Positions 1,050 to 63,548 are shown, numbered from the stretch's first letter. The stretch: 64,000 nt of DNA from a virus (UHGV-0038496), one strand, 5' to 3'. Notes: generated by a model from the letters alone, not told the origin. Program-made: numbers and translations.

Positions 1050-1971
1050 CACATGTTCAAGGAGTTCGTTACGCTCCCCCGCACCTTTACGTGCAAAGCC
1101 ACAAGATTTCTCCTGTGGGTCGGACTATCTCACGTTCCTAGATCAGCCACAGGAACCCTCCCATTTCGACCGCACTTGCTGGCCTACTCTACTCGCTTCT
1201 TCACATCAACCTGTGTTGACGCTATGCTTTCGATAGTCTCTGAACGCGACTACCAGGTGTAGTTTTTAGAGATGTGTTTCCACTGCCTTCTTTGCTTTAT
1301 GGCTCTGACTGTTCCATAAGGATACCCAAGATCCCTAATCTCGCACTGTCTCATACCACTTTGCAACAGTTCACAAATCTCTATCACCTCAGCTTCTGTT
1401 AGCACAGCGTTAGCGTTATACTCGCCTACTGGCCTAACTCTGAGGTCATTATCATAAGCGTGTTTGATATTTTTGCCTTGAGTTGTCCACTCCAGATTCC
1501 AGTATGCATTGTTGTACTTATTCCCATCTTTATGGTTCACATAGGTGAATTTTTCAGGATCAGGATTCGGTACAAAGCATTCAGCAACCAAGCGGTGAAC
1601 ACCTTTTGTACACTGCTTCCCATCAATGAACATGATTACGCAAAGGTAACCTCTACCGTTATCAAAACTGAACATTGTTGTGTGATCACGTTTAGATAAA
1701 GGTATTGTTCCGTCATCAAACACAGTGTATCCATGATAATCAAATGATCTAGCCATTTTAACTACACCTCTTTAGTCTTCGCTGCGGGTTGGCATATTGA
1801 GTTTTACCACATTTTGGCATAAAAGTCAACTTAGCGTTCCCGTCAATTAAAGAGGTTATTCGACATAGATTACTCTATGAAGCCACAATGATGTTTATGG
1901 TAATAGATGATTCTTCTGACACCTAGGTCATACCAAGTTTTATTATCTATTTTCAAGGTCATCAGGTTGCG
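1050..1971 (-). mobile_element. group I intron (about 0.92 kb) in the DNA polymerase gene, carrying an HNH ORF
   Basis: Conserved core elements read on the minus strand in canonical order: P-like AATTGACGGGAACGC (rc of 1834-1848), Q-like AACCCGCAGC (rc of 1781-1790), R-like GTTCAGAGACTATCG (rc of 1231-1245), S-like GAGATAGTCCGAC (rc of 1119-1131). Upstream exon ends in U (CAT), intron ends in G (GTG). Boundaries are predicted, not folded. Confidence 0.7.
1250..1756 (-). CDS. intron-encoded HNH homing endonuclease
   Basis: 168 aa with HNH_3-type motif VHRLVAECF...VNHKDGNKYNN..NLEW.T...N.KHA and a C-terminal HTH-like tail; RBS GAGGTG upstream; lies between the Q and R elements of the intron. 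Confidence 0.8.
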   Translation of the reverse strand: MARSFDYHGYTVFDDGTIPLSKRDHTTMFSFDNGRGYLCVIMFIDGKQCTKGVHRLVAECFVPNPDPEKFTYVNHKDGNKYNNAYWNLEWTTQGKNIKHAYDNDLRVRPVGEYNANAVLTEAEVIEICELLQSGMRQCEIRDLGYPYGTVRAIKQRRQWKHISKNYTW

Positions 1972-4329
1972 ATGAACCAATAAGCCTACCAGATCACACA
2001 ATGAAGCACCACCATTCTGCTGATATGCATTCAGCAAGGAGTGTTTAGAGCGTGTCCAGATGGCATGACCATCGAAAGCATAGATAAATTTCTTACCTGT
2101 CGCCTCCCAGAATTTCTCAAGTGCCTCTTTACGACCTTTCAGGCCGAAGTTGGTATCCCAGAATGCGTCAATTACTTGCTGACCAACCTCTGGCACAACG
2201 TCAAGCATATCCGCTACTTTATCCTTTTGAGCACCATACATCACGCCATAAGTGATTGGCTTACCATCACCACGGGAAACCTCTCTGCCCACAACTTTAG
2301 AGTAGGCTTTGGCGTTCAAAGCATGTGCGTCCCCTTCGCTTATGATCCTGTAATACGCCCCGTTGTCGAAATCGTAAGCACCCCATGCACCTATCAGCTG
2401 TTCAAGGTTGGAACCATCAACACCCAACTGATACTTACCTGGAGCAGGTTTCCAGAGACTACGCATCTCTTTACCCAGCACAACCTTTGGTGAAGGTTTA
2501 GGCTGGTTGGCACATATTTTATGTTTCTGTCGTCCGGTAGCAGTCAAACCGGAGCTTTCTGCTGGTAAGCGGTGATCGATCTGCAATCTCGGATGATTCA
2601 ACAATCCAGTATCAACCTTATCCTCTTTGATTGGGTCGAGTACTGACCTACGGTTACGCAATGACAGCCAGAACACAATGTCTTTTGCCATCTCTCCTTG
2701 CAATCTTGCCAGATTAGGACACAAATGCCCGAAGCTATCTTTCAGCTGTGGGGATGTTGGTAGCCCTCTGGCTTTACGCCGGAACTTGGCGAACACCTCC
2801 TGTTCAACCCTGGGGGAGTTCTTACGACTCATGAACTTCGCTTCTGAAATTTTGAATCGCGCATCCCTGTTCAGTTCACGAATGATCAGGGTACGATACT
2901 CGGATGTTTCCAGTTCATCCATGTACTCCCTTACTTTAGCATCAATTTCAGCATCCGGCAACTGTTTTTTGTGGTAGTCACGGGTTAAATCTTTCGTTCT
3001 CCACATTGTTGGTTGCCAGCCTACAGAGATCAGATAACGCTTGATATCCATCTGGTTATTCATTCTCATGGGCACCATGCAATCAGGCATTTTCTTATCC
3101 TGCAAATCCTTAATTGCCTGCTGCATCAAATCATCCGGCAGAGGTTTAGGTGCTTCCTCTGACCGTGCTGCCCTCAGAAAGTCTGCCTGTTTTTCAGGAT
3201 CAGTGCAACCTCTTTCCTCACACCATTTAACACCTGTAGCACTAACACTCCCATCTTTGTTGAAAGCCCGTTTAGGTGCAGGTTTGAAGTCAAAAGCTGC
3301 TTCATTAACCGGATACCCAAGTTTGTTCTTCAACCAGCTGTAGCCGTGTGAAGAGATACTACCATCTGTATTGAACGGTTTCTGTGGGAACTTAGGCTTC
3401 TGGGCCTCTGAAATTTCTTTCAGTGGCAGCTGTGGTTCCACACGATCAGCGATCTCTTTCATCATGTCATCGCATTTCTGACGTAAAGCTATCGCCCCAT
3501 CAATATCAAAGTAAACACCTTGTCTTGCTTGTAAGCCCATCAAGAAGTGCTGGAGCATACCACGACGCAGAGCATACTTCCAAGTGATTTGTTTGAATCC
3601 GCTGGGTTTCTCTTTGTCTGGATCATACATAAAGTTTTGCATGTCAGATTTGCCGTAGAATGTCCCTTTGGACTCGGCGATCAGTTCGTCCCAGAGCAAT
3701 TCCTGAATGATAACGTCTTCCCATACACGGTCTACGTATTTCCAGAGTGGAAGATTGCGCCAGTCATCAATCTTAACTTTCTGGTTGCCAAGTGCATAGC
3801 CCCAAGCCATCAACCCATGTGGACCTACAGCTTGACTTTTCTTAGTTACCGGATTGAATACCGCCTCTGGACAACCTTTCGGTAACGGGCGATCAGGCCA
3901 CAATATACGACTCATCGGCAAAGTATCAAACAGGTTAACCCTGTGACCGTTGATGGTCCCCATGCAATCTTTATCTTCGAACAGGTCGAAATGAATGCCT
4001 GATAATTTTTCAAATAGGATAAAATCGTAGTCAAAACAGTTGTGACCCACTAAAGCGGTTGGCGACCAATCAGAATGTCCTGTCAGCCACTCTTCCATAT
4101 ACCCAAAGTCAGCAACCCGCACCTGACAGTTTTTGTAAACTGTTTGTTTATTGAGAGCGAATTGTTTCGCTGTTTCTACATCTTCCTCGGAGTAATGAGT
4201 CCTGTCGTTTAGCGGCAGGAATAGTATGAAGTTGTTTTTATGATGTTGTTTGTACAATGTGCAATGATAGTAGAGGTCTTTTTCATCAAGCAACCCACTA
4301 CTTTCTGCGTCAAAAGCCCACAATGCCAT
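1972..4329 (-). CDS. DNA polymerase, family A (T7-like), exon 1 with 3'-5' exonuclease domain
   Basis: N-terminal exo motifs FDAESSGL and HNCFDYD; polymerase motif A VDGSNLEQLIGAW (T7 VDASGLELR); motif B R..GK.ITYGVMYG; the track ORF runs 34 codons into the intron to a stop at 1870 with no HDE motif; RBS AAGGAG before the ATG at 4329. Confidence 0.85.
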
Positions 4330-4345
4330 ATGTTCTCCTTATAAG

Positions 4346-4371
4346 GGGGAGTTGGCTGTACTGCTCTCCCC
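4346..4371 (-). other. GC-rich stem-loop without a U-tract, between primase-helicase and polymerase
   Basis: Stem GGGGAG/CTCCCC with 14-nt loop, immediately upstream of the polymerase RBS. Confidence 0.3.
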
Positions 4372-4386: not shown

Positions 4387-6459
4387 TCAGAACGGACAAT
4401 CTTCATCCTCAGGGAACTCCTGTTGGATTACGCTTTGATCGTCCCCTCCATCATCCTCTTCTTCTCCTTCCGCGTCAACAGCTTTTGGTTGAGGTTTCAC
4501 ATCGGCGGTAACTTTACCTTCTGGAGTTTCCACAACAACATGCTCTTCATTGTCAAACATATCTTGCGGCCTCCAGACAATATCTCCATCTTTGTTCAGG
4601 AAGAAACCTGTCTCCTTATCCCACACCCAGTCGCTGGCATCGGAGAATTTACCAGTCTCAGGGTTCATAATCAGCACATCAGCTATGCCTAAGGTTTTAG
4701 CTGGCCTGTTTTTCAGGCTAACTAAACGAACACGCCCACGGGACCTGTCAGGCATCTCTTCTGCTTCTACCCCTATGACAACCCAACTGAGTTGCTCCAT
4801 CGATCCACTACCACGAAGGTTTTCTTTACGGACAGGATACCAGAACGGTAAAGCCCTGCCTTCTTTATCCTTCGGTGGGATAATCTCTGTGCGACGCAAG
4901 TGGGCAATCGCCAGGATGAACACATTAAATTGCTTACAGAACGCTGCAAGCTGTGTCATTGCAAGGTCTAACTCTTTGCGTTCATCTTTTACATTCAAAC
5001 CAGAGATAACCATCGACAGGTGATCCAGCACGATGTAACGACAATGATACAAGCACACCATCTGTTTCAGTTTTGTGATCAGGTCGTTTACAGGTATTGA
5101 ACCGAAGTGCCGGAATACCCTGATTTTGTCAGCATCAACCCAGGCTTTGTGGATATCAAAGTGCTCCTGCTCGGTTAGATACTTGCTTGGATCTTCCATG
5201 AAATTCTTGATATCGTATCCCAGCTGGTTAGCATACAGTGAGTTGATGGCTTCTTCTGGGTCTTCTTCCAGGTGAATCATACACAACCTGTCTTCTGGGT
5301 CGTAGTCATCAGCTTTAGCCACCGTAGGATCCATCAGGTATTTAGCTATCTGGTGCTCAATTTTCTTGGCTACCGTAGTCTTACCACCACCAGAAGGACC
5401 AGTCAGCATAACCAGTGTGCCTTTATGCAAACCTTTCAGCATTTTCTGTAGTTTAGGGAACTCTGCCCCAATATCAACCCCGTTGGTGGATTTTTTACGT
5501 AAATCTTCGATTGAGAAATCACTCAGGCCTGCTACAGCATCTGGCACGTATTTGATCGGGTTTTTGAACATATCGTGAATTTGATCATACTTTTTAGCCT
5601 GGAACAAATCACGGATATCTTTGTAACCCTCTGGATCATTTACTTCACTCGGATACTGCACATGGAAAACGTTGTCAGCCATCAGGAAAGCTGCAACATT
5701 GTGAGTGGCTTCAACACCTTTGGTGACATGTTTTAGCTTCTCAACATCGTTTGCAGCGTCGTTGTCGAAGGCCAGGACAATCTCATCAAAGCTACGAATG
5801 AACTTCTCGTTGTTGGCAAAAGCATCTACGGCATTCGCGCAACCACAGTTAAGCCCTACCACGTTGATTGTGGGAAAACCTTTAGCAGAACCACCATCCT
5901 GCACCGCTTTAATACCGTCAAGAACGCTTTGTGCCCACGCTTTAGCTTTTTTATTTGATGATGGATCTGTAGCTATTTTCCTCACCATCATCCATTCAGT
6001 CTGCCACGCAGCAATAACGTCGCCTTCACCTTCGCAGACAATGATTTTACGATGGTCCGAGCCTTCCCCAACCATTTTCTGACCAAAGAACTGGCTGTTG
6101 GCCTTAACAACAGAAACTACGGTAAAATGCCCCTTCTGCTCTTTTGGGATAGTCCAGTCACGTTTCTTGTAACCAGTCAGGTTGCCATACTTATCGTAAT
6201 ACGGAAAGTATGTAGCAACAATATCCACCCCGTTCTCTTCTGAAACTGCGGAACGGATCCCGAAGTATTTAGCAGCTTCTAAACCTATGTTTTGCTGCGG
6301 AACTTTCAGTATCTTTGTAGAAGCCAGAACACTTTCGACTGTTTCTTGCTCTTTCTCGTCTCTGTAATCTCTTCTCACACTCCCTCCGCTTCTCCATTTT
6401 GTTGCTTGTGGGTTAGGTTGACCAAACTTGGCATAAGCTGAACTAAAGAAATTACCCAT
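4387..6459 (-). CDS. DNA primase-helicase (T7 gp4-like; TOPRIM plus DnaB-like helicase)
   Basis: TOPRIM-like IIVCEGEGDVIAAW, Walker A MLTGPSGGGKTT, helicase motifs (VLDHLSMV, AIAHLRR); 690 aa. Confidence 0.85.
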   Translation of the reverse strand: MGNFFSSAYAKFGQPNPQATKWRSGGSVRRDYRDEKEQETVESVLASTKILKVPQQNIGLEAAKYFGIRSAVSEENGVDIVATYFPYYDKYGNLTGYKKRDWTIPKEQKGHFTVVSVVKANSQFFGQKMVGEGSDHRKIIVCEGEGDVIAAWQTEWMMVRKIATDPSSNKKAKAWAQSVLDGIKAVQDGGSAKGFPTINVVGLNCGCANAVDAFANNEKFIRSFDEIVLAFDNDAANDVEKLKHVTKGVEATHNVAAFLMADNVFHVQYPSEVNDPEGYKDIRDLFQAKKYDQIHDMFKNPIKYVPDAVAGLSDFSIEDLRKKSTNGVDIGAEFPKLQKMLKGLHKGTLVMLTGPSGGGKTTVAKKIEHQIAKYLMDPTVAKADDYDPEDRLCMIHLEEDPEEAINSLYANQLGYDIKNFMEDPSKYLTEQEHFDIHKAWVDADKIRVFRHFGSIPVNDLITKLKQMVCLYHCRYIVLDHLSMVISGLNVKDERKELDLAMTQLAAFCKQFNVFILAIAHLRRTEIIPPKDKEGRALPFWYPVRKENLRGSGSMEQLSWVVIGVEAEEMPDRSRGRVRLVSLKNRPAKTLGIADVLIMNPETGKFSDASDWVWDKETGFFLNKDGDIVWRPQDMFDNEEHVVVETPEGKVTADVKPQPKAVDAEGEEEDDGGDDQSVIQQEFPEDEDCPF

Positions 6460-7186
6460 TGAGTTTGCTCCTTACAACGGGTTCGTTGGCTTCAAATACT
6501 GCTAATGCCCAACCACGAGGTGTCAGGCTCCTGATCATTTTGGTACGAGGAGATTTTCCTCCCAGCTTGGTATGTTGGAAAGAATACCCATTTACATCAC
6601 AAATCTGCGGCACAGGTCGTTTCTCAGGGACAACAAAACCATTTCCGAACCATCCACAGGTTAGCTTCGGATAAGCATCCCTGGGCTTAATCAGGTCAGG
6701 GAACCACGGGTTCTGATCGTCTTCCGGCAGATAGCCACCATACTCATACGGATGGAACTTGTAGTCCGGTTTACGCCACATATTGGACATAACACCAACA
6801 GGGTTCTCCACATGCCACGGACAATTATACATGTTACCCAGCGTTTCTGCAATACGTGCATCTTTTACAGCATTGACCTGAATCAACGGATCTTTTTGTA
6901 GTTTTTTCTTGAAATGCGCTGCCCCAGATACCGCTAAGTGGGTACATGGTGGAAACGACAGGATGAAATCTGGTGCAGGATACATCCCCAGGGTTTCTTG
7001 TGGAAACCACGGGTCAATCCAGTAGTCGATGTACTGAATGTTAGGGTGTTCCTCTACTACCTCTGCATAGCTCCCGTGATCTGCCCCTTCTGCGTTGAAG
7101 CAGAAGCACAGATACCCTGCATCAGCCCAGGGTTTGACAGCAATATCAGAGCCATTGAATAATGCCCACACTACGCCTTGCTTCAT
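6452..7186 (-). CDS. hypothetical protein (about 244 aa)
   Basis: Track ORF 6452..7258 trimmed to the ATG at 7184-7186 (MKQGVVWALFNG...) because it has an RBS GGAGGG 9 nt upstream and the longer reading frame runs through a terminator hairpin. Confidence 0.5.
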   Translation of the reverse strand: MKQGVVWALFNGSDIAVKPWADAGYLCFCFNAEGADHGSYAEVVEEHPNIQYIDYWIDPWFPQETLGMYPAPDFILSFPPCTHLAVSGAAHFKKKLQKDPLIQVNAVKDARIAETLGNMYNCPWHVENPVGVMSNMWRKPDYKFHPYEYGGYLPEDDQNPWFPDLIKPRDAYPKLTCGWFGNGFVVPEKRPVPQICDVNGYSFQHTKLGGKSPRTKMIRSLTPRGWALAVFEANEPVVRSKLNG

Positions 7187-7212
7187 ACTATTTAGCCCTC
7201 CAAACACAAAAA

Positions 7213-7232
7213 CCCCGCCCTTTCGGGCAGGG
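7213..7232 (-). terminator. rho-independent terminator
   Basis: GC hairpin CCCCGCCC-TTTC-GGGCAGGG followed on the minus strand by TTTTTGTGTTTG; downstream of the 7239..7712 gene. Confidence 0.6.
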
Positions 7233-7238
7233 CTGTTA

Positions 7239-7712
7239 TTACTCGACGCGAATCCCAATTGTATACTCTGTTGAGACTAATGTCAAGTCTATGTTTAAAA
7301 TTTTATTCAGTTGTTCGAAATGTTCCTCTGTCAGATAAATCTTTTCAGAGGCTGTGCCAGTTAAATGATACTTCAGGAACCCAGGGTAATCGCTTATAGC
7401 GTAGCGTAGGCACCGCATTTCAGTTGGGTTGATGTAACCGTCATGCATCACCATCTGAGCTACGCCCAGTCCAGCATAGAAGCTCTGAGACTCTTTCAAG
7501 TAGTGCTCCCATACTGTTGTTTCTTTTTTAATCAATCCGAAGAACTTCTCTTCGACATAACGTTTGTTTTTAAGATATTTCAGAATCCTGTTACCAATCA
7601 CTGCAAGATCACGGAATTTAAGAGCAGCTTTTTGTAGCGTTTCCCGTGGTACTTCAATCAGGTCTTGTGCAGCAGGACCAATCTTCCAGAGATAGTCGCT
7701 TTCGTAAATCAT
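7239..7712 (-). CDS. hypothetical protein
   Basis: 157-aa ORF; overlaps neighbours in operon-like fashion. Confidence 0.5.
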   Translation of the reverse strand: MIYESDYLWKIGPAAQDLIEVPRETLQKAALKFRDLAVIGNRILKYLKNKRYVEEKFFGLIKKETTVWEHYLKESQSFYAGLGVAQMVMHDGYINPTEMRCLRYAISDYPGFLKYHLTGTASEKIYLTEEHFEQLNKILNIDLTLVSTEYTIGIRVE

Positions 7713-13785: not shown

Positions 13786-14979
13786 TTAAGCCTTAGCTAA
13801 CAAGTCACGGAACTCTTCCCCAAACTGTTTGACGATAGTCATCAGGTTAGGGTATGCTTTAATCAGTTTAGCCATGATTTTCTCACGACCATGCTCTTTG
13901 TTCACCAGAATAGCATTGCCAAGTGCATTCGGGCTAATCATCGCTTTGAACACAGAGAATACGAAGTCTCTGTTGTCATTCTGGAAGTTGCTCCATAAAT
14001 ATTCCAGGAAGTTCGCAGCACTGCTAACCACTTCGTCATCATCGACTTCAATGTTAGCCATCATGTTGCGTAAGCCAATACAACCTTCTGAACCCAGAAT
14101 CCAGATGAGGTCTGGAGATTTCTGGCCTTTGAACTCTTTGACTGCCCCAGCAAAGATATCCCCAATCTCTGGCAGATTGCGTTTCTTCGTGTGGTAAGTC
14201 ATAATCTCCAGCATCATCGTGTGACCAATCGTCCCCTGTAACAGGACACGGGCTTCAGCTTCTGAAACCAGACGGCGATCAAGGTCCCACAGAATATCCG
14301 AAGCAGTTACCCATGAACGAGGTGTGGCGAATGCAGGACAGTTGCAGTCTGCCATTGCTTCGTAGTTCTCAATAGATGACGGCTGGCGTTTCAAATAACC
14401 GATCACAGAAGAATGCACACCTTGTGGGAATGCATAGTCTTCCAGGAAGACGTTGGCATCTGGGATAACTTCTACAATAGTTAAACGGTTTGCCAGAGGT
14501 GCTTCCAATACAGACAGCACTGCACCATCACCAGAACGGTTACCTGCACCTACAAACACCGCACCTTTCGGGAATTTGTAGCAACCGCATTTGTGGTCCA
14601 ACATGATCTGCATGGCTACTTTCTGGAGAAAATTATCTGCATGGTTCATTTCATCCAGCAGAATAATACCTTCCCAGTCTGGATCAGTAGGCCAGAAGCT
14701 CGGTGTGGCAAACACAGTGCGAGTTGTGCCATCTTCCTCTGTTACCGGAACAGGCAGGCCAGACAGGTCTGTTGGGTCTTTATCTGACAAACGAACATCG
14801 ATCAAGTTATCTTCCCGTTCTCCAAATAGTTTATCGGCAGTTTGCTTGATGACCTGGCTCTTACCAACACCAGGAGAACCCAGTATAAATAAAGATTTGC
14901 CGTGACGCTGGGCAAACTTGATCATAGCAGGCAACTCACGAACTGTAATCTGCCCACTTTCGAAAATGTTTCTTGACAT
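13786..14979 (-). CDS. AAA+ ATPase (MoxR/AAA_5-like)
   Basis: Walker A GSPGVGKSQ, Walker B ILLDEMNHA; 397 aa. Confidence 0.75.
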   Translation of the reverse strand: MSRNIFESGQITVRELPAMIKFAQRHGKSLFILGSPGVGKSQVIKQTADKLFGEREDNLIDVRLSDKDPTDLSGLPVPVTEEDGTTRTVFATPSFWPTDPDWEGIILLDEMNHADNFLQKVAMQIMLDHKCGCYKFPKGAVFVGAGNRSGDGAVLSVLEAPLANRLTIVEVIPDANVFLEDYAFPQGVHSSVIGYLKRQPSSIENYEAMADCNCPAFATPRSWVTASDILWDLDRRLVSEAEARVLLQGTIGHTMMLEIMTYHTKKRNLPEIGDIFAGAVKEFKGQKSPDLIWILGSEGCIGLRNMMANIEVDDDEVVSSAANFLEYLWSNFQNDNRDFVFSVFKAMISPNALGNAILVNKEHGREKIMAKLIKAYPNLMTIVKQFGEEFRDLLAKA

Positions 14980-15230
14980 TAGTAAAGCTCCTCTCTTGCT
15001 TCGTAAGTATGTTCAAAGTTTTCAAGTTCTGTCATTACATCGAAGACAGGGATGCCATACGCTATGTCGAAATTATAAGCCATTCTACCAGCTACAACTT
15101 CTTGTGGGTCAATTGCCCGATTAGCGTAGAAGTATGCAGGGGTGCACCTACGTGATCCACCCCTCATGCCGCTATGATAATACTTTTCGTAGTCCCTGTC
15201 AAAGTCTAATTCTCTATATTGGTTTGACAT
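14979..15230 (-). CDS. hypothetical protein
   Basis: 83-aa ORF; ATGA-type overlap with the ATPase gene. Confidence 0.4.
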   Translation of the reverse strand: MSNQYRELDFDRDYEKYYHSGMRGGSRRCTPAYFYANRAIDPQEVVAGRMAYNFDIAYGIPVFDVMTELENFEHTYEAREELY

Positions 15231-22168: not shown

Positions 22169-22197
22169 TTGACATGGAATGATGGTTGTGTTAAGAT
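22169..22197 (+). promoter_or_regulatory. sigma70-like promoter (TTGACA, 17-nt spacer, TAAGAT)
   Basis: -35 TTGACA 22169-22174, -10 TAAGAT 22192-22197; the track ORF 22179..22403 starts inside this promoter, so its true start is taken as 22251. Confidence 0.5.
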
Positions 22198-22250
22198 GCT
22201 TCCATCAAATGAAGAGAAGCACAGTTCAACAGATAAATAAGGAGTCAGCC

Positions 22251-22403: not shown

Positions 22404-22414
22404 GGGGGTGGGTT

Positions 22415-22558: not shown

Positions 22559-22566
22559 CTGTATAG

Positions 22567-22592
22567 GCCCCGCTTCGGCGGGGCTTATTTTT
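22567..22592 (+). terminator. rho-independent terminator
   Basis: GCCCCGC-TTCG-GCGGGGC hairpin followed by TTATTTTTGTCTTTT. Confidence 0.7.
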
Positions 22593-23635: not shown

Positions 23636-23646
23636 TAAAAATTTTG

Positions 23647-49256: not shown

Positions 49257-49903
49257 GCATAAGTGTGGGCTTTGTATTCCTGATAGAAACTATCAAGGTC
49301 AACGCCGTTGGCAGTGATCATTCTCCCTTCAGGAGTGACCTTTGCCCCATTCATCACGATGTTACCATCTGTCTTAGCAGTCAGGCTTGCTGCCCCGTTG
49401 TTGAAGCTAAACTCACCAGATTGATCCACAACCAAAGTACCAGCCGGAGTCTGCAATGTAAAGTCTCCGTTCGGTGTCATTGTGAAATGCACTTGGTCAT
49501 TATACAGCTCAACGTTCTCCGGGTCAATAGGCATTGCATTACCATCTGAATGGACAGAAGTAATCGCCCATCCAGGGAACAGGCCATGAGTTTGCATATC
49601 GTCGTTGTTGTTCTCATTACGTTCAGAGAACTGCAAACCAACGATATCCCCAGGCTTGATTGGTAACGTCAGCCTTGCCTTACCACCATTGGCAGATACC
49701 ATTTGAAGCGGAACATCGTAAATCAGTGGAAAGCGATCCACATCGTCATCTTCAAAATATGTCTCAGCCAGAGGCTGGACAGAAGCAGAAGGAATGGAGT
49801 AGTCCACAGAGACAACTCTTGCTCTCACAGAAGTGTGAAAGCCTCGCATCGTCTCCTCGATGAAACTACGAAACGCTGCATCTTTTCTGGCAAGTGTTCC
49901 CAT
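49220..49903 (-). CDS. putative baseplate spike / assembly protein V-like
   Basis: 227 aa with a beta-rich repetitive C-terminal half, in the position of P2 gpV / Mu gp45-type spikes. Confidence 0.4.
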   Translation of the reverse strand: MGTLARKDAAFRSFIEETMRGFHTSVRARVVSVDYSIPSASVQPLAETYFEDDDVDRFPLIYDVPLQMVSANGGKARLTLPIKPGDIVGLQFSERNENNNDDMQTHGLFPGWAITSVHSDGNAMPIDPENVELYNDQVHFTMTPNGDFTLQTPAGTLVVDQSGEFSFNNGAASLTAKTDGNIVMNGAKVTPEGRMITANGVDLDSFYQEYKAHTYACPHGGRTSTPG

Positions 49904-50568
49904 TATTCCTCCTGACTGTCATCAACTAGTAGAGAATCTCTGTAAGAAATTGCGTCAGATAGGTCTTTAAACTGCCTTCTTCTCTTCCCCGGAACTTGAA
50001 CTCTCCACCTGCCACGTTCTTTAGCAAAACGGATATATTTTTCTCCAGACAGATTATCAGACCTTGCTCTTACCTTAATCTTAGGTGCTATACCTGAGGC
50101 AATATCCTCCTCCGCTCGTTCCCTGGCCTCCACAGCTTCTTCAAAAGTATCAAAACTTCCAAGGCTATATTTATGGTTACCATGCACTACCGCTGCTTTC
50201 CACTTGTGCTTAGTATTGCAATAGTGGACACCCGCGACACCTGAAGTGTTATTAATATTTAAATTTTTTCTTTTAATACAAGAGGTGTTCACAGCAGGTG
50301 TGACCAGCTCTAAATTCTCAATGCGGTCATCCCCCCGAATGCCGTTTATGTGGTTAATAACCAACCCTTCTGGGATAGGGCCATTGAACATTTCCCAGAC
50401 AACCCTATGTCTGTAGAAACGTTCATGACCTACACCAACATGCCAGTACCCGTGCCCCGAATCGCACCCAACTTTTGCCCCTGTGTAATGCCCGTTGCGG
50501 CTGGTTTTCCAGAACAACTCCCCATCTACATATAGAAAATGCTCATGAAAATTAATCATCGCTTCCAT
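49903..50568 (-). CDS. free-standing HNH homing endonuclease with AP2-type DNA-binding domain
   Basis: HNH_3 motif LVINHINGIRGDDRIENLELVTPAVN; AP2-like SGVAGVHYCNTKHKWKAAVVHGNHKYSLGSFDTFEEAVEARERA; likely start is the second ATG at 50559 (RBS GAGGA); overlaps both neighbours. Confidence 0.75.
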   Translation of the reverse strand: MEAMINFHEHFLYVDGELFWKTSRNGHYTGAKVGCDSGHGYWHVGVGHERFYRHRVVWEMFNGPIPEGLVINHINGIRGDDRIENLELVTPAVNTSCIKRKNLNINNTSGVAGVHYCNTKHKWKAAVVHGNHKYSLGSFDTFEEAVEARERAEEDIASGIAPKIKVRARSDNLSGEKYIRFAKERGRWRVQVPGKRRRQFKDLSDAISYRDSLLVDDSQEE

Positions 50569-51601
50569 CCTCTATAACACCAGCGTAACACTCCCCAAGG
50601 CCCAATTCTGTAATCCAATCACCTCCTTCAACTTGCCCTTTGTGGTGAACTGTAATCACTTTGTAGAAGCCTGTGTACCGTCTACTTTTCAGGTAGATTG
50701 TTGATTCAGGGATAATTGCACCATTCAGCACCGTGGTCACCGTCAGGCCAACATCCTCTTTTGGATTTTTCTTTTTCTTTTTCTTACCAGTTACACCAGC
50801 TTGTTCATCTGTGATCGGGCTTTTACCTTCTTTGCCACCACCTTTGGCAGCAGCTTTTGCTTTACGTTTTTTAGCAGGTTCTGGGTTCTTAGGTGTGGGA
50901 GAACCGTGCATACCAGTCTCTGCACTGATCTCGTAGACTGAATCTTTAAACCGTTTACCAGTCTTAGTCCAGTAGACTGCGCCATCCTGAACGCTGAAAT
51001 TAGAGTTGGTAAGACGTGCAAACTTCCTAAGGTTCTCAGCCGTGTTGCCGGAGAAAGCCATAGAATATTGCAAAGTCTGATTCCCGAACTTAACCACACG
51101 TCCACGGGGCAGGTTCATATCGTTCAAAAGATCATTCAACACCGTATCCATCGGAGTACCTTTGGCATACGATCTTGTTGTCTGGCATTTGATAATGTTC
51201 TCTGTACCATCACCGAAGATCAGTTTAGTCTTACGGGTTGGACCATCCCACGTATCTTCCACAAACTCAACTGTGCCGGAGAAGATAACCTGGTTATCGT
51301 TATCATAGCCTGCTTCAAGCAGAACAGCAACGGCATCTGCTTGATGGGCATCAAGATAGTTCACTGTATCATCTGACAAGTTGTAGACAATCACATAGCC
51401 TTTGTTTGGCTCTTTGGAATTATCTTTCTGCAAATCAAACTCGATGTTGGCGAATCCGGTATCGGAGCTGATCTCATAGACACCGGAATCTGATTCACTA
51501 CGCTTTTGAACTGCTTTCGGGATATCCACCTTCGTTTTCCCTTTAGCGACCACACATCTACCGAAGAGTAATCGCCAGGTTCTGTGTCTGTACTCAGCCA
51601 T
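50552..51601 (-). CDS. putative baseplate hub / tail protein with poly-Lys tract
   Basis: 349 aa; position after tape measure and two small tail genes; internal KKRKAKAAAKGGGKEGK...GKKKKKKNPKED. Confidence 0.4.
   Translation of the reverse strand: MAEYRHRTWRLLFGRCVVAKGKTKVDIPKAVQKRSESDSGVYEISSDTGFANIEFDLQKDNSKEPNKGYVIVYNLSDDTVNYLDAHQADAVAVLLEAGYDNDNQVIFSGTVEFVEDTWDGPTRKTKLIFGDGTENIIKCQTTRSYAKGTPMDTVLNDLLNDMNLPRGRVVKFGNQTLQYSMAFSGNTAENLRKFARLTNSNFSVQDGAVYWTKTGKRFKDSVYEISAETGMHGSPTPKNPEPAKKRKAKAAAKGGGKEGKSPITDEQAGVTGKKKKKKNPKEDVGLTVTTVLNGAIIPESTIYLKSRRYTGFYKVITVHHKGQVEGGDWITELGLGECYAGVIEDGSDD
50755..50780 (-). repeat. homopolymer-rich simple repeat (CTTTTT)n encoding a poly-lysine tract
   Basis: Plus strand tttttctttttctttttctt inside the hub-like gene. 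Confidence 0.6.
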
Positions 51602-52979: not shown

Positions 52980-54088
52980 TTAGTTAGTAGGACTTGCAAA
53001 CAGGTTAATATCTTTCCAATTTTCCCATTCAAATCTTGCATCCAGCATTTCTTCGAACTGAGCAGCGTCAAACTCGATTGTAATTTTACCCTCACCAACT
53101 TCCAGAGGAATTGGAGGAATTTCGAAGGATGGTAACGGATCCAAAGGTGTACTTGGAGTTGGATTAGCTCTGTAGGTAATCGGGTTAAGCATACGGTAAT
53201 CCAGGCCAAGGAAAGATGAAATGCCGTTAACACCATCGACAAGCCACTGCGGATGTTTGGTCACGTCAGTTTCCTGGTGGTAGTTTTGCATCCAATCATC
53301 CAACATACCAGCACCTTCGTACCCCATGTAGCCCAGAGCTAATGGTCCTTTCCATTTCCACAGTCCACCAAGTAACCGTGCAAACAATCCTTTCTTAGCC
53401 ATGGCTGCTGCACCACCCGCAGCTGCACCACCTGCGGCGGCACCACCGAGAGCACCTGCAACACCTCCGGCAGCTTTAATCATACCCAGGGTTGCGGCAA
53501 CAGCTTTGACGATTCTCAGCAATTTCCATACGGCGTTAACAACAACTAAGATGGAGAAAGCATAGCCTACCCATTTAGCTTTGCTGAATGTTTCATCAAC
53601 AGTGTCACTTGTATCTTTGACTTCTTTTTTCAGCAGACCAAAGTGGTCTTTGACTTGCAACCACCAGATACGGATACTGACAATCGTGTTGTTCAATTCA
53701 CCAACAATGTCGTTCAGACCCTGGATAAATCCAGATACAAACTCACCAGCCTGCATGATCATTGGGGTGAATGTTTCTCCTGTGCGGATCAGGGTGTAAT
53801 AAAACTCGGTGAGTTCATCTGACCATGTGGTGAACAGTTTTTGTTTAGTCAATTCGATGAAAGTTTTCAAACGGTTTTCAGCCAGAACGTTAGATTTCTG
53901 CATACGTTCATAACCAGCAGCTGACGCTTCGTTCATGTACTTAGCAACGTATTTCATCATTTTGGCTGTTTTGACCTGGCCTTTCTGCATCATGTCCATG
54001 AATTGTTCCATAGACAGCTCAGACAGGTTGAAAGCCTCTTTTGTTGCTTTAATGAACGGCTCGTAAGCACCTGGCATTGCTTCAGCTA
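52980..54088 (-). CDS. tail tape measure protein, exon 2
   Basis: Track ORF is TTG-initiated with an in-frame stop just upstream at 54108-54110; contains a Gly/Ala-rich hydrophobic segment (GGVAGALGGAAAGGAAAGGAAAMAKKG) typical of tape measure proteins; predicted 3' splice site after G at 54089. Confidence 0.6.
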
Positions 54089-54917
54089 CCAATGTCCAGA
54101 CAGTTCGCTACGCTGTCCCGGTGTGCTAAGACACCCGCCACACATTTCTGTGTGGAGCAGACTATATCTTCTCTGGATAACCAGAGCCAACCATTTCAGA
54201 GGCGCTTGCCTCTTACACCGCTACACTCATCACGGTTAGTCGTTGAGCACATAACTTATAAATCTTTCAGCAGTTTAGACCATGCTTTCTTAGTCTTGAT
54301 TCGAACAATTGCTGATCTGCAAGCACCAAATTCTTCCATCAAATCTGTTGTATTCTCAAACCGCCTGTTATAAATTTCGATAACCTCTTCTGCTGTGAGC
54401 TTATGATTGGCATTTGACTCACCAGAGGCATCATTCAGGCCATTTGCAAAAGCATGTTTCTGATTGCCAGATCGAGTAACATACTCCAGATTATCTTTAT
54501 GGTTGTTTGCTTTATTACCGTCCTTATGGTTAACTTCCATCCCAGGTTGTGGAGGTTCACCAAGGAAAGTAAGGGCAACTATTCTGTGAACAAGATACAA
54601 CACACATTTGCCGTTTACCCGAAAGTAAACGCGTTTGTAACCATTGTGTATTGTCTGCTCAGTCAACTGCTTCCGTGTGTTTCTTCTTGTAGAGAATATT
54701 GCACCGTCCTCTCTACAGAAGTACCCATCGTGACCAGGAACTGGTCGGATTTCTAAGTTACTTCGCTGCGGATTATCCATTGTTACATCCTCCAAACTTT
54801 TTACCATACCCCGAGTAGTTACTTCGGGCCATAAACATGTTACCACATTTATTTGGTATTTGGAAGGCTTTAGGAGCTTCCCGCAATTAGGTTGGTTTTA
54901 TAACAGCTAGTATGTCA
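54089..54917 (-). mobile_element. group I intron (about 0.83 kb) in the tape measure gene, carrying an HNH ORF
   Basis: Read on the minus strand: P-like AATTGCGGGAAGC (rc of 54876-54888), Q AATCCGCAGC (rc of 54765-54774), R-like TCAACGACTAA (rc of 54236-54246), S AAGATATAGTCT (rc of 54159-54170). Candidate P1: exon AACAGU pairs with intron GCUGUU, with U-G at the splice site. Intron 3' end GGACAUUGG is homologous to the polymerase intron 3' end GAACAUGUG. Boundaries predicted only. Confidence 0.65.
54256..54780 (-). CDS. intron-encoded HNH homing endonuclease (paralogue of the 1250..1756 product)
   Basis: HNH_3 motif VHRIVALTF...VNHKDGNKANNHKDNLEYVT...NQKHA; shared LTAEEVIEI block; start taken as ATG at 54778-54780 with RBS GGAGGA (track ORF extends upstream to 54846). 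Confidence 0.8.
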   Translation of the reverse strand: MDNPQRSNLEIRPVPGHDGYFCREDGAIFSTRRNTRKQLTEQTIHNGYKRVYFRVNGKCVLYLVHRIVALTFLGEPPQPGMEVNHKDGNKANNHKDNLEYVTRSGNQKHAFANGLNDASGESNANHKLTAEEVIEIYNRRFENTTDLMEEFGACRSAIVRIKTKKAWSKLLKDL

Positions 54918-56142
54918 ACTGTTGTTTTAGTTCCTCAGACATTACCTGTCCTTTACCAAGCATTTGCTGTATCGCCATAATACCACGCTGATATTTTACT
55001 TCATCAGCACCATATGACGCAGCATATTGCGAATAAGCAGAGAACAGATCACGGACTTCCTGCCCTGTCATTTGGTTTTTGGCGTTTACTGCCATTTGAG
55101 AGTAGCCTTGCAGACCTGATTTCAGGTCGAAGCCTAATCTCATAGCTTCACCTTGTACGAATGCAACTTCCGAGTTAGCTTTCGTAGGATCACCCATAAC
55201 GTTGGTAAGAGCAGCACTCGCACCTTCCATCATGTGACCGGATTTGTTAACACTGACAATTGCAGAGAATGCGGTGTACGCTTTAGTCAAATCCATGACT
55301 GTTGTTCTTAATTTATTAAAAGCGGTGCTCAGAGTCATGGTTCCAGCAGCAGCATTAGCAAACCCCTTCTGCATTGCAGCGATCTGGGCGTTGAAAGTTG
55401 ACTTACCTATCAACCCTTTTGCATATTGCTGTTCAACCTGACGGTAGCCACCTAACATATCCCTAAAATTAGCCCCATAACGAGCTGTCAGACGCGTTGA
55501 CATGTTGGTAAGGTGTGTTAGCCTATCCATACCCACATTATTGCGTTTGGGCGTTCCTGAGCTGCCATTTTGCTTGTGCCATCTGTTCATTGCAGCAGTC
55601 TGGGCACGAACAAGTGCTGGGTTGGAAGCTACACCACCCATGTTGGGGTTACCTGGGATATATCTGAAGGTATTTGCTCTGGACAGAGCACGGGGTGAGA
55701 CTGGTTTGTTGGAGAAGTAGGAACTACCTAAGCCACCACTTTTCTTAGCCAGTTTGGATTGTTCCTGATAGAATTTACGCATTCTCACCAATTCAGGATC
55801 TTTGGCAGTCATCTGACCGACAACCTGTTTCCTTCTGGCGTTCTCACGTTTTTCTATCGCAGATCGTACAGCAGCTTCACGTTTAGCCTGGGATACAGCT
55901 TCCTGATGCATACGGCGTTGCTGTTGCAACTGTTTATTCTGTACCCTCTGAACAATCTGACCAGTCTTCTCCATCGATGCTTGCCAGGCTTTCAGAGGAT
56001 TCCCCTTTCCCAAAGAATCGCCCAGCTTTGTAAACTCCCTGCCTAATCCTTTAATTCTTTCAATAGCTTTTTTATAGCTATTGTTATCGATCTCAAATGT
56101 AATTCGGTTTGTGGTTGTGGCAACCACTTTGTTACCAGCCAT
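54918..56142 (-). CDS. tail tape measure protein, exon 1
   Basis: Long alpha-helical, Q/A/K-rich N-terminal region; RBS AGGAGAG before ATG at 56142; the track ORF continues three codons into the intron to a TAG at 54907. Confidence 0.6.
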
Positions 56143-56998: not shown

Positions 56999-57008
56999 TG
57001 CAAACAGA

Positions 57009-57026
57009 AAGCCTCCGAAGAGGCTT
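57009..57026 (-). terminator. rho-independent terminator overlapping the nuclease stop codon
   Basis: AAGCCTC-CGAA-GAGGCTT hairpin followed on the minus strand by TTTCTGTTTG. Confidence 0.55.
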
Positions 57027-58563
57027 ATAACCACTTAGCTCTCCATACCCATTTAATCTTACCACTATCCCACAACCGGATAGCCCCAACCAAATCTTCT
57101 ATCTCCCGCTCTGTACGAGGATCAATAGACTTATCTGGGTTGAAGTCTACATCAGATCTGCCAATCTCCTCCAGACGTTTAGGAATCAATCGACGTTGCC
57201 AGTGTGGTTTCGGACGCAAACCATTAGCAGGGTGGAATACTCTGTAGTCAGGTTTGCCATACGTTTCAGCAACAAATCCCAACACTTCATAAACCCCACC
57301 AGCGAAGTAGTCATTCATACTGAATGAACTAACCTCTTCTGGATTATTCTCCCTGATAAACGTTTTAAACAGTCTAGATGCCCCACCACGAACAGAACAG
57401 CTTGATGCAAATCTTGATAACTCCCATGTTGCCTTAGTCGTACCGTTAGCTCTGGCCTGACCTCTCGTAGTTTTACCGTAGCCGAAGCTCATGATTGCTA
57501 CAATTTCACCTTCTTTCGTTTTCAGAGCCAGATTGATAGGGTTAGGAGAATGGCCCTGCGGGTGGTAAGCGTCGTAAAACTCTTTGCACTCTATTGATTT
57601 TAGATGCACAACTTCACACTCCCTGGCATTTACTTTACGCTCACCATTACACCCCAAAGCATGAGCCAGCAACTGGCTGAACACTTTCTGGTTGTTATCC
57701 CAATCATAGTCCGTGATCTGGATCAGGCGAATACCTTTCTCTTTACAGGCTAACCACTTGTTGTAATGGTAGTCTTTAGACTTATGATTATCACCATGCC
57801 AGAAGACACCGTTAACTTCAATCGCCACACGTTTTGATGGGACAAAGATATCTAACTCTTTGCCATCATCCAAGATAGTGCGGTTAGACTGCTCCGCGTC
57901 TGGACAGATAGATTTTACAAAGTCAAAGACAGATCCTTCCACTTTAGAAGTCAATTTTGCACAATGCCTGCACCCATGACCTCTGTGAATGTGTTCTTTC
58001 ACAGGCTGTTGGAACTCTGATCCACATTTTGTGCATTCAATATTGAGAATGCCTTTCTTCCTTTCATCATAAAACATACTTTTGTAAACGTATTTATCTT
58101 TGTGGACCTCTTTAGCTTGTTCCACAACTTCTTCAAAAGAGTTTCTGCTTTTTCTACCACGAGTCATGTTAGCACAACGAGGGCAGCCCTGTCCTCTCAA
58201 ATGTTTGCTAGGTTTTTGTGAGAACACGCCGTGGTCAGGGCAAATAATGTTCACATTTGTCACTCTATCTTTATACACAACCTCAGAGTAATCGTAACGA
58301 TCACCATGTTTTTCTTTGGCCTTTTCGATAAATTCTTCCCTGTTTCCACGTTTACGCTCAAGGTAACATTCTTTGCACCCCTCCCCTTTTCTGTGAGCAT
58401 TCGCTTCTACCGAAAACACGCCATGTTTTTTGCAAATAATGTTAACTTTTTCTCTGCTACCTTTGTACTCAGTTTGACTGTAATCATACATTTCTTCAAA
58501 CTCAGGGTTTTCTTTGAAGACGGCTGTTAGCCATTCTTCTTTTGTATAACCTTTTCCAGCCAT
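57025..58563 (-). CDS. putative homing-type endonuclease: three tandem zinc-ribbon-like repeats plus Vsr-like PD-(D/E)xK nuclease domain
   Basis: Three roughly 45-aa repeats (Y.YS...Y......NIICP.HGVF......H..G.GC..C); nuclease-like block DIFVPSKRVAIEVNGVFWHGDNH resembling the FVDGCFWHGH core of Vsr (from memory); start set at ATG 58561-58563 (MAGKGYTKEEW...) with RBS AGGAG. Confidence 0.65.
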   Translation of the reverse strand: MAGKGYTKEEWLTAVFKENPEFEEMYDYSQTEYKGSREKVNIICKKHGVFSVEANAHRKGEGCKECYLERKRGNREEFIEKAKEKHGDRYDYSEVVYKDRVTNVNIICPDHGVFSQKPSKHLRGQGCPRCANMTRGRKSRNSFEEVVEQAKEVHKDKYVYKSMFYDERKKGILNIECTKCGSEFQQPVKEHIHRGHGCRHCAKLTSKVEGSVFDFVKSICPDAEQSNRTILDDGKELDIFVPSKRVAIEVNGVFWHGDNHKSKDYHYNKWLACKEKGIRLIQITDYDWDNNQKVFSQLLAHALGCNGERKVNARECEVVHLKSIECKEFYDAYHPQGHSPNPINLALKTKEGEIVAIMSFGYGKTTRGQARANGTTKATWELSRFASSCSVRGGASRLFKTFIRENNPEEVSSFSMNDYFAGGVYEVLGFVAETYGKPDYRVFHPANGLRPKPHWQRRLIPKRLEEIGRSDVDFNPDKSIDPRTEREIEDLVGAIRLWDSGKIKWVWRAKWL

Positions 58564-58596
58564 CGAAAAACTCCTAGTAGTTTTAAACACAGGGGA

Positions 58597-58626
58597 ACTA
58601 TACCACAAAACATTAGCTTTTGTCAA
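58597..58626 (-). promoter_or_regulatory. sigma70-like promoter with extended -10 (TTGACA, 18-nt spacer, TGG-TATAGT)
   Basis: Read on the minus strand: TTGACA (rc of 58621-58626), 18 nt, GTGGTATAGT (TATAGT = rc of 58597-58602); about 30 nt upstream of the nuclease RBS. Confidence 0.55.
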
Positions 58627-62137: not shown

Positions 62138-62800
62138 TTACCTGCGAGATGGGTATCTTTTTGGTTGTCCAGGTGAACCACTCATAGGTGTGATACCAGA
62201 AACATCAAAGCCACAAACACTGTTACTATGACGTTTAACTCTCTGGAACTCATCTTCACGAACACCACCGATGATAACCAGTCTACCACAGGAATCCAGT
62301 TCAGAGTCAACATAGTCTGGGTTAGCAACCAACCAGTCAAGGAAGTCTCTCCAGCCCTGCCATGTGGTCTGGCCTATGCGAACTTCAACACTTTCATCAC
62401 CGATTTTTTCCATACGGGAACTAATGCTGGACTCACCGCTCGCAACTTCCTGGACCATCAGCCAGCGAACAGCTTGTACCATTGCATCGTATTTGACATT
62501 CGGCAATCTTTCTGGATGATTTTCCAGATCATGTCTCATTACTGCCATTTCAACAAACAAGGCCAGAGTTTCAGGTGGTAACACCTCTTTTGATACATTG
62601 CCCAGCAGGATACGAATAAATGCTGACAACGAATCTTCTCGACCGAACTCAGGATCAATATCATCATCTGGTACAGTTGGCAATTCCGGCTCCGGTTCTG
62701 TTGGTTCTTCAGGTTCAACTGGATCTACTGGTGCTTCGCCTTCACCAGTGCCAGGATCTTGAGAAGTAGGGACTACCTCTTCTTCTTCATACCACGCCAT
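62138..62800 (-). CDS. hypothetical head / neck protein with acidic Pro/Glu-rich N-terminus
   Basis: Start set at ATG 62798-62800 (MAWYEEEEVV...) with RBS GAAGGAGA; track ORF starts at an upstream GTG. Confidence 0.4.
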   Translation of the reverse strand: MAWYEEEEVVPTSQDPGTGEGEAPVDPVEPEEPTEPEPELPTVPDDDIDPEFGREDSLSAFIRILLGNVSKEVLPPETLALFVEMAVMRHDLENHPERLPNVKYDAMVQAVRWLMVQEVASGESSISSRMEKIGDESVEVRIGQTTWQGWRDFLDWLVANPDYVDSELDSCGRLVIIGGVREDEFQRVKRHSNSVCGFDVSGITPMSGSPGQPKRYPSRR

Positions 62801-62833
62801 TCTGTCTCCTTCAAGGATTATGGACACTTAATT

Positions 62834-62862
62834 ATTATACCATGATGACTACAAATTAGCAA
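62834..62862 (-). promoter_or_regulatory. sigma70-like promoter with extended -10 (TTGCTA, 17-nt spacer, TGG-TATAAT)
   Basis: Read on the minus strand: TTGCTA (rc of 62857-62862), 17 nt, CATGGTATAAT (TATAAT = rc of 62834-62839); the -35 overlaps the last codons of the HNH gene. Confidence 0.5.
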
Positions 62863-63548
62863 TGTAGCCATTCAAGAGGCTCAGTAAGCTCCATTTTGTT
62901 ATGTTTTTCAAGATTCATTGCTGCTGGGATAAGCTGCCAGTTCATATGCCAGTGTAAACCACCTTTAGACAGTGGAATCATATGGTCTACGTGCCACTCT
63001 ATCCCAGTTTCTTCCTTACGGATTTCTGCAAGCTCAAACATCTCTTGCAGTACAAAATCATCAAAATCTGAATACCATTTTGGTATAGCGTGCCGTTTTA
63101 TCTCATTTCTGCGAATAGTTGCATTAAGAAACAAATGTTTATTTCGACGATAAGATGCTGCCCTGCGAGCTTTCATCTTCTCTGGGTTAGCCTTCTCCCT
63201 ACGCCTCCTGTTCTCACAGATTCTATCCTTGTTTTTAGCATAGCGTTGTTTATCGTACTCTCTTGCCTTTTCAACATCAGCAGCACGTTTCGCTTTGACC
63301 TTCTCTTTTATCTCTTCACCTTTCCTGGCATAATACTTTTTAGCACGTTGCTTGTGCTCTTCCAACAACTTCTCCCTATTATCAGCATAGTTCTGTCTGT
63401 CTTTCTCGCGGCTGCATTCCAAACATGCTCCGTTAACTGTTAATCTTTCACAAATGTGACCATGTTTGCAAGGCTTACCAGTAAAATAGCGCACCATTCC
63501 ACGTTCTTTAGCAATACTTCTTTGAATGATGTGTAAGTAAAGTTCCAT
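62856..63548 (-). CDS. free-standing HNH endonuclease with N-terminal Cys-rich zinc ribbon and basic coiled region
   Basis: Classic HNH core EWHVDHMIPLSKGGLHWHMNWQLIPAAMNLEKHNK; N-terminal CKHGHICERLTVNGACLEC; K/R-rich linker; RBS GGGGGTG. Confidence 0.75.
   Translation of the reverse strand: MELYLHIIQRSIAKERGMVRYFTGKPCKHGHICERLTVNGACLECSREKDRQNYADNREKLLEEHKQRAKKYYARKGEEIKEKVKAKRAADVEKAREYDKQRYAKNKDRICENRRRREKANPEKMKARRAASYRRNKHLFLNATIRRNEIKRHAIPKWYSDFDDFVLQEMFELAEIRKEETGIEWHVDHMIPLSKGGLHWHMNWQLIPAAMNLEKHNKMELTEPLEWLHC

Follow-up and report, generated by a model that had tools for sequence, protein, structure and literature searches.

Homing endonuclease genes, group I introns and inteins are well-known elements of large lytic phages, and the genes described below belong to this well-known kind. 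T4 encodes 15 homing endonucleases in 169 kilobases (kb), about 8.9 per 100 kb, and Pectobacterium phage CB7 (Certrevirus, subfamily Vequintavirinae) encodes 23 in 142.8 kb, which corresponds to about 16 per 100 kb and about 7% of its genome (PMC7344957); ICP1 and T4 have been cited as dense carriers of such nucleases (PMC10055350). In Bacillus phage SPO1, a group I intron of the DNA polymerase gene encodes I-HmuI, a nickase with a solved structure (PDB 1u3e) and with the relatives I-BasI and I-TwoI. Here we analyze a stretch of 64,000 nucleotides (nt) from the virus UHGV-0038496, hereafter the window, which contains five nuclease genes (N1 to N5), all on the minus strand and at or within positions 1250 to 63548. 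A sequence-only reading had announced for this region five nucleases of two classes, namely two intron-encoded HNH enzymes, two free-standing HNH enzymes and one Vsr-like enzyme; the count and the classes stood up to comparisons with Pfam, family profiles and PDB entries. We assign a probability of roughly 0.82 to the reading that N1 to N5 are mobile genes for nucleases of the homing-endonuclease type and were acquired independently of each other. This reading is carried by the identity of the genes, their nuclease folds, the group I character of two insertions, the exact junctions, the polymorphism at all five sites, and an excess of identity in the introns.

The window is a dense phage segment. 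Its genes follow the same order as those in the structural and replication modules of Escherichia phage MaxTheCat (Vequintavirus); most proteins of the window are 45–90% identical to those of MaxTheCat. A comparison over 4.1 kb showed 100% identity of the window to contig k141_617802 (140,706 bp) of the ENA assembly ERZ27287477. Among isolate phages, megablast with the first 25 kb gave a match only around the polymerase intron, and no tRNA genes were found within the window. Sequence comparison places it as a metagenome-derived, rV5-like myophage within the Vequintavirinae; at the DNA level it falls outside the genus Vequintavirus. As close relatives we used four IMG/VR contigs (A, B, C, and D), which are 85–92% identical in nt to the window along its whole length; a wider comparison comprised the tube loci of 20 more distant Vequintavirinae. 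The boundaries of introns and insertions were set by comparison with element-free alleles of relatives; all positions are compiled in Table 1.

None of the five genes is fixed among A to D (0/5), and fixation with synteny of all five in the relatives was thus not observed. N3 and N5 are each found in 0 of 4 relatives. N1 is present in two (C and D); its intron occurs in three, since B has retained the intron with the open reading frame (ORF) deleted, and is absent from A. N2 is present in B, C, and D (3/4), and A lacks the intron. At the N4 site two divergent allele types occur: B and C carry the allele of the window (91–93% amino acid (aa) identity), A and D one that is only 33–45% identical. 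N2, N3, N4, and N5 were not found at the 20 more distant tube loci, and the N4 cassette is absent in all rV5-like and more distant tube loci examined. In MaxTheCat, tblastn found no match to any of the five, and the same sites hold no counterpart. Further signs of movement come from the introns: These are 96–100% identical among carriers, compared to about 88–94% for neighbouring exons and backbone, and in bins of 500 nt the intron segments are the most similar parts of the window and the carriers (95–98% versus a backbone of about 89%). Since the window stems from a metagenomic contig, one may ask whether the insertions are assembly chimeras. However, N1, N2, and N4 are found at identical junctions in independently assembled contigs of another project (IMG 3300045988), the N5 protein is recorded on several other long contigs, and the junctions are precise and in frame with intact translation signals; we give hardly any credence to this explanation.

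Table 1. Introns, exons, nuclease genes and their inserts, in window numbering
Feature	Position	Strand	Evidence
DNA polymerase exon 2 (DEYQYE... to stop codon)	696..1049	-	tblastn to MaxTheCat polymerase C-terminus
Polymerase group I intron, 847 nt, HNH ORF in P6 loop	1050..1896	-	RF00028, intronless allele in A
N1, I-HmuI-like HNH endonuclease, 168 aa	1250..1756	-	Pfam HNH_3, phrog_59, PDB 1u3e
DNA polymerase (family A) exon 1	1897..4329	-	Pfam DNA_pol_A; 74.8% aa identity to MaxTheCat; ends ...IIYYH, first half of motif C
N3 ORF, HNH_3 + AP2-like	49903..50568	-	Pfam
N3 insert, 648 nt, between baseplate hub and central spike	49929..50576	-	absent in A-D and 20 distant tube loci
Tape-measure exon 2	52980..54088	-	tblastn to MaxTheCat record 14036..15121, directly adjoining exon 1 match
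Tape-measure group I intron, 829 nt	54089..54917	-	RF00028, precise absence in A
N2, I-HmuI-like HNH endonuclease	54256..54846, probable start ATG 54780 (174 aa)	-	HNH_3, 1u3e
Tape-measure exon 1	54918..56142	-	TMP_3 match ends at residue 409/411; collinear with MaxTheCat residues 1-414
N4 variable cassette, 1.6 kb, between tail tube and tail assembly chaperone genes	57003..58619	-	comparison of relatives
N4 ORF, 512 aa: three treble-clef zinc fingers, central Vsr/EDxHD-like nuclease, C-terminal Mom-like GNAT	57025..58563	-	
N5 insert, 748 nt	62845..63592	-	7 nt in place in A-D
N5 ORF, N-terminal zinc ribbon + C-terminal HNH	62856..63548	-	family profile

The polymerase gene allows best to follow the argument for an intron. 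Its predicted in-frame excision restores the catalytic motif C (YH|DE); the join reads ...UAC CAU / GAU GAA, the last base of the 5' exon is a U, and the intron ends with ...GUG, that is, with a G. In A the intron is precisely absent, and YYH-DEYQ is uninterrupted. With the ORF in place, the intron matched the Rfam model RF00028 with 24.9 bits (E = 8.5e-4) in a targeted E-value scan. In B, a 585-nt HNH segment is replaced by 47 nt and the remainder is 96–97% identical to the window; this natural ORF-less intron reached 56.9 bits (E = 6e-14), compared to a gathering score of 50. A scan of the whole window against Rfam at gathering thresholds gave no match, because both introns carry ORFs. By the model match and its boundaries, the polymerase insertion is classified as a group I intron. 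N1 matched the Pfam family HNH_3 (PF13392) with 25.8 bits (cut-off 24.8), phrog_59 with E = 1.9e-41, and I-HmuI with E = 3.5e-8, where the N-terminal and HNH parts were aligned. Copies of N1 with 90–95% aa identity occur in 28 phage records, and at least 80% identity is reached in about 31 phage records, among 119 records whose polymerase is 60–80% identical. The copy of the Vequintavirus Phage 203 lies at the same polymerase site and is annotated in its record as a phage intron. A comparison of Phage 203 with positions 828..2757 of the window gave about 87% nt identity for intron and HNH gene and about 68% for the polymerase exons; this excess indicates that intron and N1 have moved laterally in recent times. 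At residue 605, the DNA polymerase gene of relative D contains a second group I intron that lacks an ORF (L034:11735-12110; RF00028 with 79.1 bits) and is absent in the window.

The tape-measure gene, which is uninterrupted in MaxTheCat, presents a similar picture. Its intron, with a 591-nt ORF inside, scored 24.8 bits with RF00028 (E = 8.8e-4), which is below the gathering score of 50. The canonical core elements AAUUGCGGGAA, AAUCCGCAGC, and GAAGAUAUAGUC and conserved P3/P4, P6, and P7 sequences are present. The splice join CAG U / UA GCU is in frame and leads to ...KQQ-L-AEA...; a U precedes the 5' splice site, and the intron ends with ...UUGG. Again the intron is precisely absent in A, where QQ-L-AEA is uninterrupted. 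The P8 hairpin (on the 54089..54255 side) is formed by CUCUGG/CCAGAG in the window and C and by CAUAAUC/GAUUAUG in B and D, which also have a further 27-nt peripheral insertion forming extra hairpins. P8 was thus wholly replaced with its pairing kept, which shows that the RNA structure is under selection. By its boundaries, the exact in-frame excision and the preserved pairing, we class this insertion, too, as a group I intron. N2 matched HNH_3 with 50 bits and PDB entry 1u3e nearly over the full length (E = 9e-13); it is 36.6% identical to N1, and its copies in B, C, and D show 96–97% aa identity. The likely start codon of N2, with GGAGG upstream, lies inside the conserved ribozyme core sequence AUGGAUAAUCCGCAGC.

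The split polymerase and the split tape measure, both named by the sequence-only reading, are thus accounted for by a group I intron in each gene. Alternatively, the two genes could be truly split, with halves that are translated separately and assemble after translation without any splicing; the NrdA protein of Aeromonas phage Aeh1, whose gene is reportedly split by mobE, may serve as a model. A potential start codon opens each downstream half (GTG at 1052, TTG at 54092), the intron copies of the window score below the Rfam gathering score, and one HNH-containing "intron" of CB7 did not splice (PMC7344957). On the other hand, the polymerase intron exceeds the Rfam threshold in its ORF-less allele, both introns possess canonical core elements, U/G boundaries and exact in-frame joins, and the exchange of P8 preserves pairing, a sign that selection acts on the RNA structure. 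Moreover, a break inside the catalytic motif C is hard to square with two polypeptides. Taken together, these findings make truly split genes improbable, and we prefer the interpretation as introns.

The two free-standing HNH genes are located in the structural module. N3 was inserted within the last seven codons of the baseplate-hub gene (junction region 49903..50620). In the relatives, the hub protein ends with ...AGVVDDSQEE (stop) and its gene overlaps the start of the spike gene; in the window, it ends with ...AGVIEDGSDD (stop), a new acidic tail encoded by the 5' end of the insert. The C-terminus of N3, ...LLVDDSQEE (stop), corresponds to the ancestral hub tail and comes together with the ribosome-binding site of the spike gene; N3 has therefore captured both. 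N3 matched HNH_3 with 71.1 bits, the AP2 match was below the cut-off, and the comparison with 1u3e gave E = 0.014. The closest phage relatives of N3 are found at unrelated sites, for example beside dcm and a primase gene in Vequintavirus. An exact-sequence look-up of N3 gave no match, probably owing to a differing start chosen by the gene caller. For N5, a PDB search with the single sequence gave chance matches only. In contrast, a family profile of 41 homologs matched the HNH domains of solved proteins in the PDB with E = 2.2e-5, and 14 of the 41 matched PF01844 at E <= 0.01 (best 7e-14). The residues D188, H189, N203, N212, and K215 are invariant in this family. By the family-level profile and the D-H...N...N residues, N5 is classified as an HNH endonuclease. 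Its insertion site is flanked on one side by an intrinsic-terminator-like hairpin with a T-run, on the other by a TATAAT-containing, promoter-like sequence of the adaptor gene. The expectation that several nucleases sit at boundaries of essential structural genes is thus confirmed, for example at hub/spike, at tube/chaperone, and at the adaptor.

The location within the structural module also admits a different reading, namely that N3 and N5 are no selfish elements but domesticated virion-assembly or DNA-packaging factors, similar to HNH proteins of the HK97 gp74 type. Some packaging machines indeed include HNH proteins (Kala et al. 2014, cited in PMC7344957). However, neither gene adjoins a terminase gene, both are absent in the four close relatives and in the other Vequintavirinae loci examined, where the neighbouring genes are collinear, and the nearest phage homologs of N3 reside at unrelated sites. 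We consider such a domestication very improbable and retain the interpretation of N3 and N5 as mobile genes. Two observations concern the surroundings of N5 and of similar domains. The -10-like sequence TGTGTTATACT just upstream of N5 resembles the promoter-like sequence of the adaptor gene (62800..63640), as if the cassette had brought or duplicated a promoter. In the intergenic region at about 23626..24245, between divergent modules, A, B, and C carry 2.0–3.7 kb of extra genes, the window only about 200 nt of unique sequence; among these genes are an 88–98-aa ORF that is 47–49% identical to the HNH domain of N5 and genes for coiled-coil or membrane proteins.

Based on these results, the following mechanism can be proposed. 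Both introns would splice from the polymerase and tape-measure mRNAs, such that the host genes stay functional. N1 and N2 most likely nick or cut the intron-less alleles of a co-infecting relative, and repair would then copy the intron; classical intron homing by an I-HmuI-type HNH enzyme is the best-supported model for these two. N3, N4, and N5, which are located between essential structural genes, either in intergenic positions or at gene ends, most likely cut a nearby site in genomes without them, and the cut would be repaired by recombination in the manner of the T4 Seg and Mob genes. For N3 and N5, the best-supported model is intron-less homing of this type. Marker exclusion and recombination between relatives, which had been expected from the density of nucleases, are plausible in view of T4 and ICP1. 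Note that we infer enzymatic activity, target sites, splicing in vivo, and marker exclusion.

A number of points weigh against this reading. Cleavage, splicing, and homing are predictions made from sequence. The close relatives A to D all originate from the one metagenome named above, which makes them a narrow sample. Beyond the introns, the 500-nt identity bins gave no clear sign of co-conversion tracts or of patterned breakpoints around the nucleases, and in the comparison of the window with Phage 203 the exons beside the polymerase intron are at backbone level. As a single sequence, N5 scored 17.2 bits with Pfam HNH, which is below the cut-off of 21.4. Two further points concern N4: Among carriers its copies are about 90% identical and show no excess over the backbone, so that N4 may be inherited vertically, and its Mom-like domain suggests a different biology.

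A closer inspection of N4 revealed a Vsr-like nuclease fold and sequence homology to I-Bth0305I, a proven homing endonuclease of the EDxHD family (PMC3239194; PDB 3r3p). Four motif residues (E230, D259, N272, H277) are conserved; the position corresponding to D222 holds H287 in 44 of 47 sequences, an assignment that depends on the alignment. N4 is free-standing and does not have the architecture of the EDxHD family, which consists of an N-terminal NUMOD and a C-terminal nuclease and is associated with introns or inteins. With hhalign, the N4 family profile matched Mu Mom at E = 1.3e-3 and a probability of only 18%. In Mom, R111, S124, D149, and R151 are essential (PMC13219725). The counterparts of R111, S124, and Y159 in the N4 family are R405 (47/47), S417 (40/47), and Y446 (47/47); those of D149 and R151 in the N4 of the window are M437 and D439, i.e. 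these two are not conserved. The family (phrog_559/3339) is multi-copy and occurs at 2542 places in 939 phage records. A literature search on DUF4379 found nothing on that family.

The designation of N4 as a Vsr-like selfish nuclease is therefore correct with respect to the fold and less certain with respect to selfishness: With its additional Mom-family GNAT, N4 may act as a conflict enzyme of the modification/restriction type, or combine this role with homing, instead of being a plain homing endonuclease. As a conflict enzyme acting as a single polypeptide, N4 would acylate adenines in the phage's own DNA by means of the GNAT, the nuclease would attack unmodified DNA of the host or of competitor phages, and the divergent alleles would reflect diversifying selection on specificity. 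The hhalign match and the conservation of R405, S417, and Y446 agree with this role, as do the lack of an identity excess and the fact that all five members of the clade keep an N4-family gene at the site. Iyer and colleagues predicted exactly such modification plus restriction enzymes for fusions of Mom with a restriction-fold nuclease in jumbo phages, of which PA5oct has five (PMC7824862); a "putative homing endonuclease" of PA5oct is a strong structural match to N4 (rank 6). In contrast, the essential residues D149 and R151 of Mom have no conserved counterparts in the window copy, the hhalign probability is low, the nuclease domain is homologous to that of I-Bth0305I, and multi-copy occurrence with insertion between essential genes is typical of homing endonuclease genes. 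We regard the conflict enzyme as a tentative alternative, less probable than a homing endonuclease. A further point against the conflict enzyme comes from T-even phages, in which one free-standing homing endonuclease gene was reportedly exchanged for another at the same locus (title of Sandegren et al. 2005, listed in PMC3239194). Either reading is compatible with the multi-copy spread, with an insertion site flanked by essential genes, and with the divergence of alleles at a single site.

N4-type proteins could also be self-marking selfish nucleases, which combine a homing endonuclease and a restriction-modification system in one protein: The Mom-like domain could mark the DNA of the carrier, and the nuclease could cut the unmarked DNA of co-infecting relatives by the tube/chaperone locus. 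This would explain why the site is occupied by one allele in every member of the clade, in spite of a divergence down to 33–45% identity. We consider this idea doubtful. Two neighbouring observations may be added. In the divergent N4-site cassette of relative A, a 129-aa ORF without a Pfam or PHROG match is located upstream of the nuclease gene (L004:10517-10906). The window also encodes a Dcm-like C5 cytosine methyltransferase (6452..7258) with a PPC motif, which is 79% identical to the Dcm-like gene product of MaxTheCat. This gene is 50 kb away from N4 and is conserved in relatives without N4, and therefore the two do not form a Dcm/Vsr pair. The ORF 7239..7712 beside the methyltransferase was considered as a Vsr-like gene and rejected, as it has no Pfam match and a conserved homolog in MaxTheCat.

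With five genes in 64 kb, the density of nucleases is 7.8 per 100 kb, and the five ORFs make up 6.3% of the window. All five have nuclease signatures, and the folds are only two, the beta-beta-alpha-Me HNH fold and the Vsr-like PD-(D/E)XK fold. A first set of simple regular expressions for HNH motifs detected none of the true HNH genes; with a second set, four were found. No sixth nuclease was found: The other window ORFs of at least 80 aa map to syntenic MaxTheCat genes or are without a nuclease signature, and scans of the window for GIY-YIG, LAGLIDADG, and EDxHD motifs gave nothing further. Whether this load is "unusually high", as had been claimed, depends on the reference set. In comparison to MaxTheCat, it is high: There, the syntenic region has no more than a polymerase intron without an ORF, and a single putative homing endonuclease is annotated in the 135-kb record. 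In comparison to the own clade or subfamily it is not unusual: C and D have four or five elements each in the same region, which differ from those of the window, and both CB7 and T4 are more densely populated. The claim was thus overstated.

The relatives contain an additional type of element. In-frame insertions were found at polymerase residue 672 in A (L031:12020-12988) and C (L030:12020-13006), and in the P-loop of the primase/helicase of C (L030:7951-8898) and of the helicase of D (L034:3397-4362); the window has none. They comprise about 320 aa, begin with Cys, and end with GN before Cys or Ser. A comparison with Pfam gave no match, and they match internal segments of the PHROG families of PhoH, RNR, and ThyA. 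According to these sequence motifs and to PHROG matches inside unrelated host proteins, we consider them intein-like. A further variable segment of about 450 nt (22179..22629) is absent in A and B; it contains ORFs of 74 and 47 aa, the second of which looks membrane-associated, and has no nuclease signature.

These results have consequences for annotation. Automated gene calling breaks up both the polymerase and the tape measure, and the ENA record lists the tape measure as products of 411 and 365 aa; both gene models should be joined across the group I introns at the junctions given in Table 1. Moreover, the window and A to D represent a compact natural population, about 90% identical, with many polymorphic sites. 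These are two intron sites in the polymerase and one in the tape measure, three free-standing nuclease sites, and three intein-like sites (polymerase, primase/helicase, helicase). With this population, homing, intron loss, and marker exclusion could readily be studied in a gut-type, coliphage-like lineage. The greatest novelty lies in the Mom-like GNAT of the family phrog_559/3339, which is widely annotated as "homing endonuclease"; it provides a link to the predicted modification/restriction fusions.

How do the five genes compare with the known systems? N4 differs from I-Bth0305I in that it is free-standing and not intron-encoded, in that the part that binds DNA consists of three treble-clef zinc fingers instead of NUMODs, in that the nuclease is central and not C-terminal, in the last motif residue, which aligns as His and not as Asp (H287), and in the extra GNAT/Mom-like domain. 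In this domain, a C-terminal Mom-like GNAT fold joined to a restriction-fold nuclease, N4 resembles the fusions of jumbo phages (PMC7824862) and Mu Mom (PMC13219725; PDB 8bv8). In contrast to these fusions, whose function is only predicted, the genome concerned here has about 140 kb and is not that of a jumbo phage, and D149 and R151 of Mom lack conserved counterparts in this copy.

N1 shares with I-HmuI the location in a group I intron of a phage DNA polymerase gene. The differences are the host of N1 and N2, which is a Gram-negative-type, rV5-like myophage with a family A polymerase, the location of N2 in a tape measure, and the low sequence identity; nicking is established for I-HmuI, whereas for N1 and N2 it is suggested by sequence. 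The Seg and Mob genes of T4 and the nucleases of ICP1 (PMC10055350) are, like the genes described here, free-standing between essential genes, mobile without an intron, and variable among close relatives. In ICP1 such nucleases sit at recombination boundaries. They belong to the families GIY-YIG and T5orf172, whereas the window has HNH_3 plus AP2, zinc-ribbon HNH, and Vsr-like enzymes. Marker exclusion has been demonstrated for T4 and ICP1 and may by analogy occur here.

The most similar case is CB7 (PMC7344957), which belongs to the same subfamily and encodes HNH enzymes both in polymerase introns and, in large number, as free-standing genes, besides a helicase intein; splicing of its polymerase introns was confirmed by reverse transcription polymerase chain reaction. 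The density in CB7 is about twice that of the window (16 versus 7.8 per 100 kb), and neither a tape-measure intron nor a Vsr-like member has been reported for it. Finally, the elements of CB7 are mostly common to its close relative PhiTE, whereas those of the window are all polymorphic.

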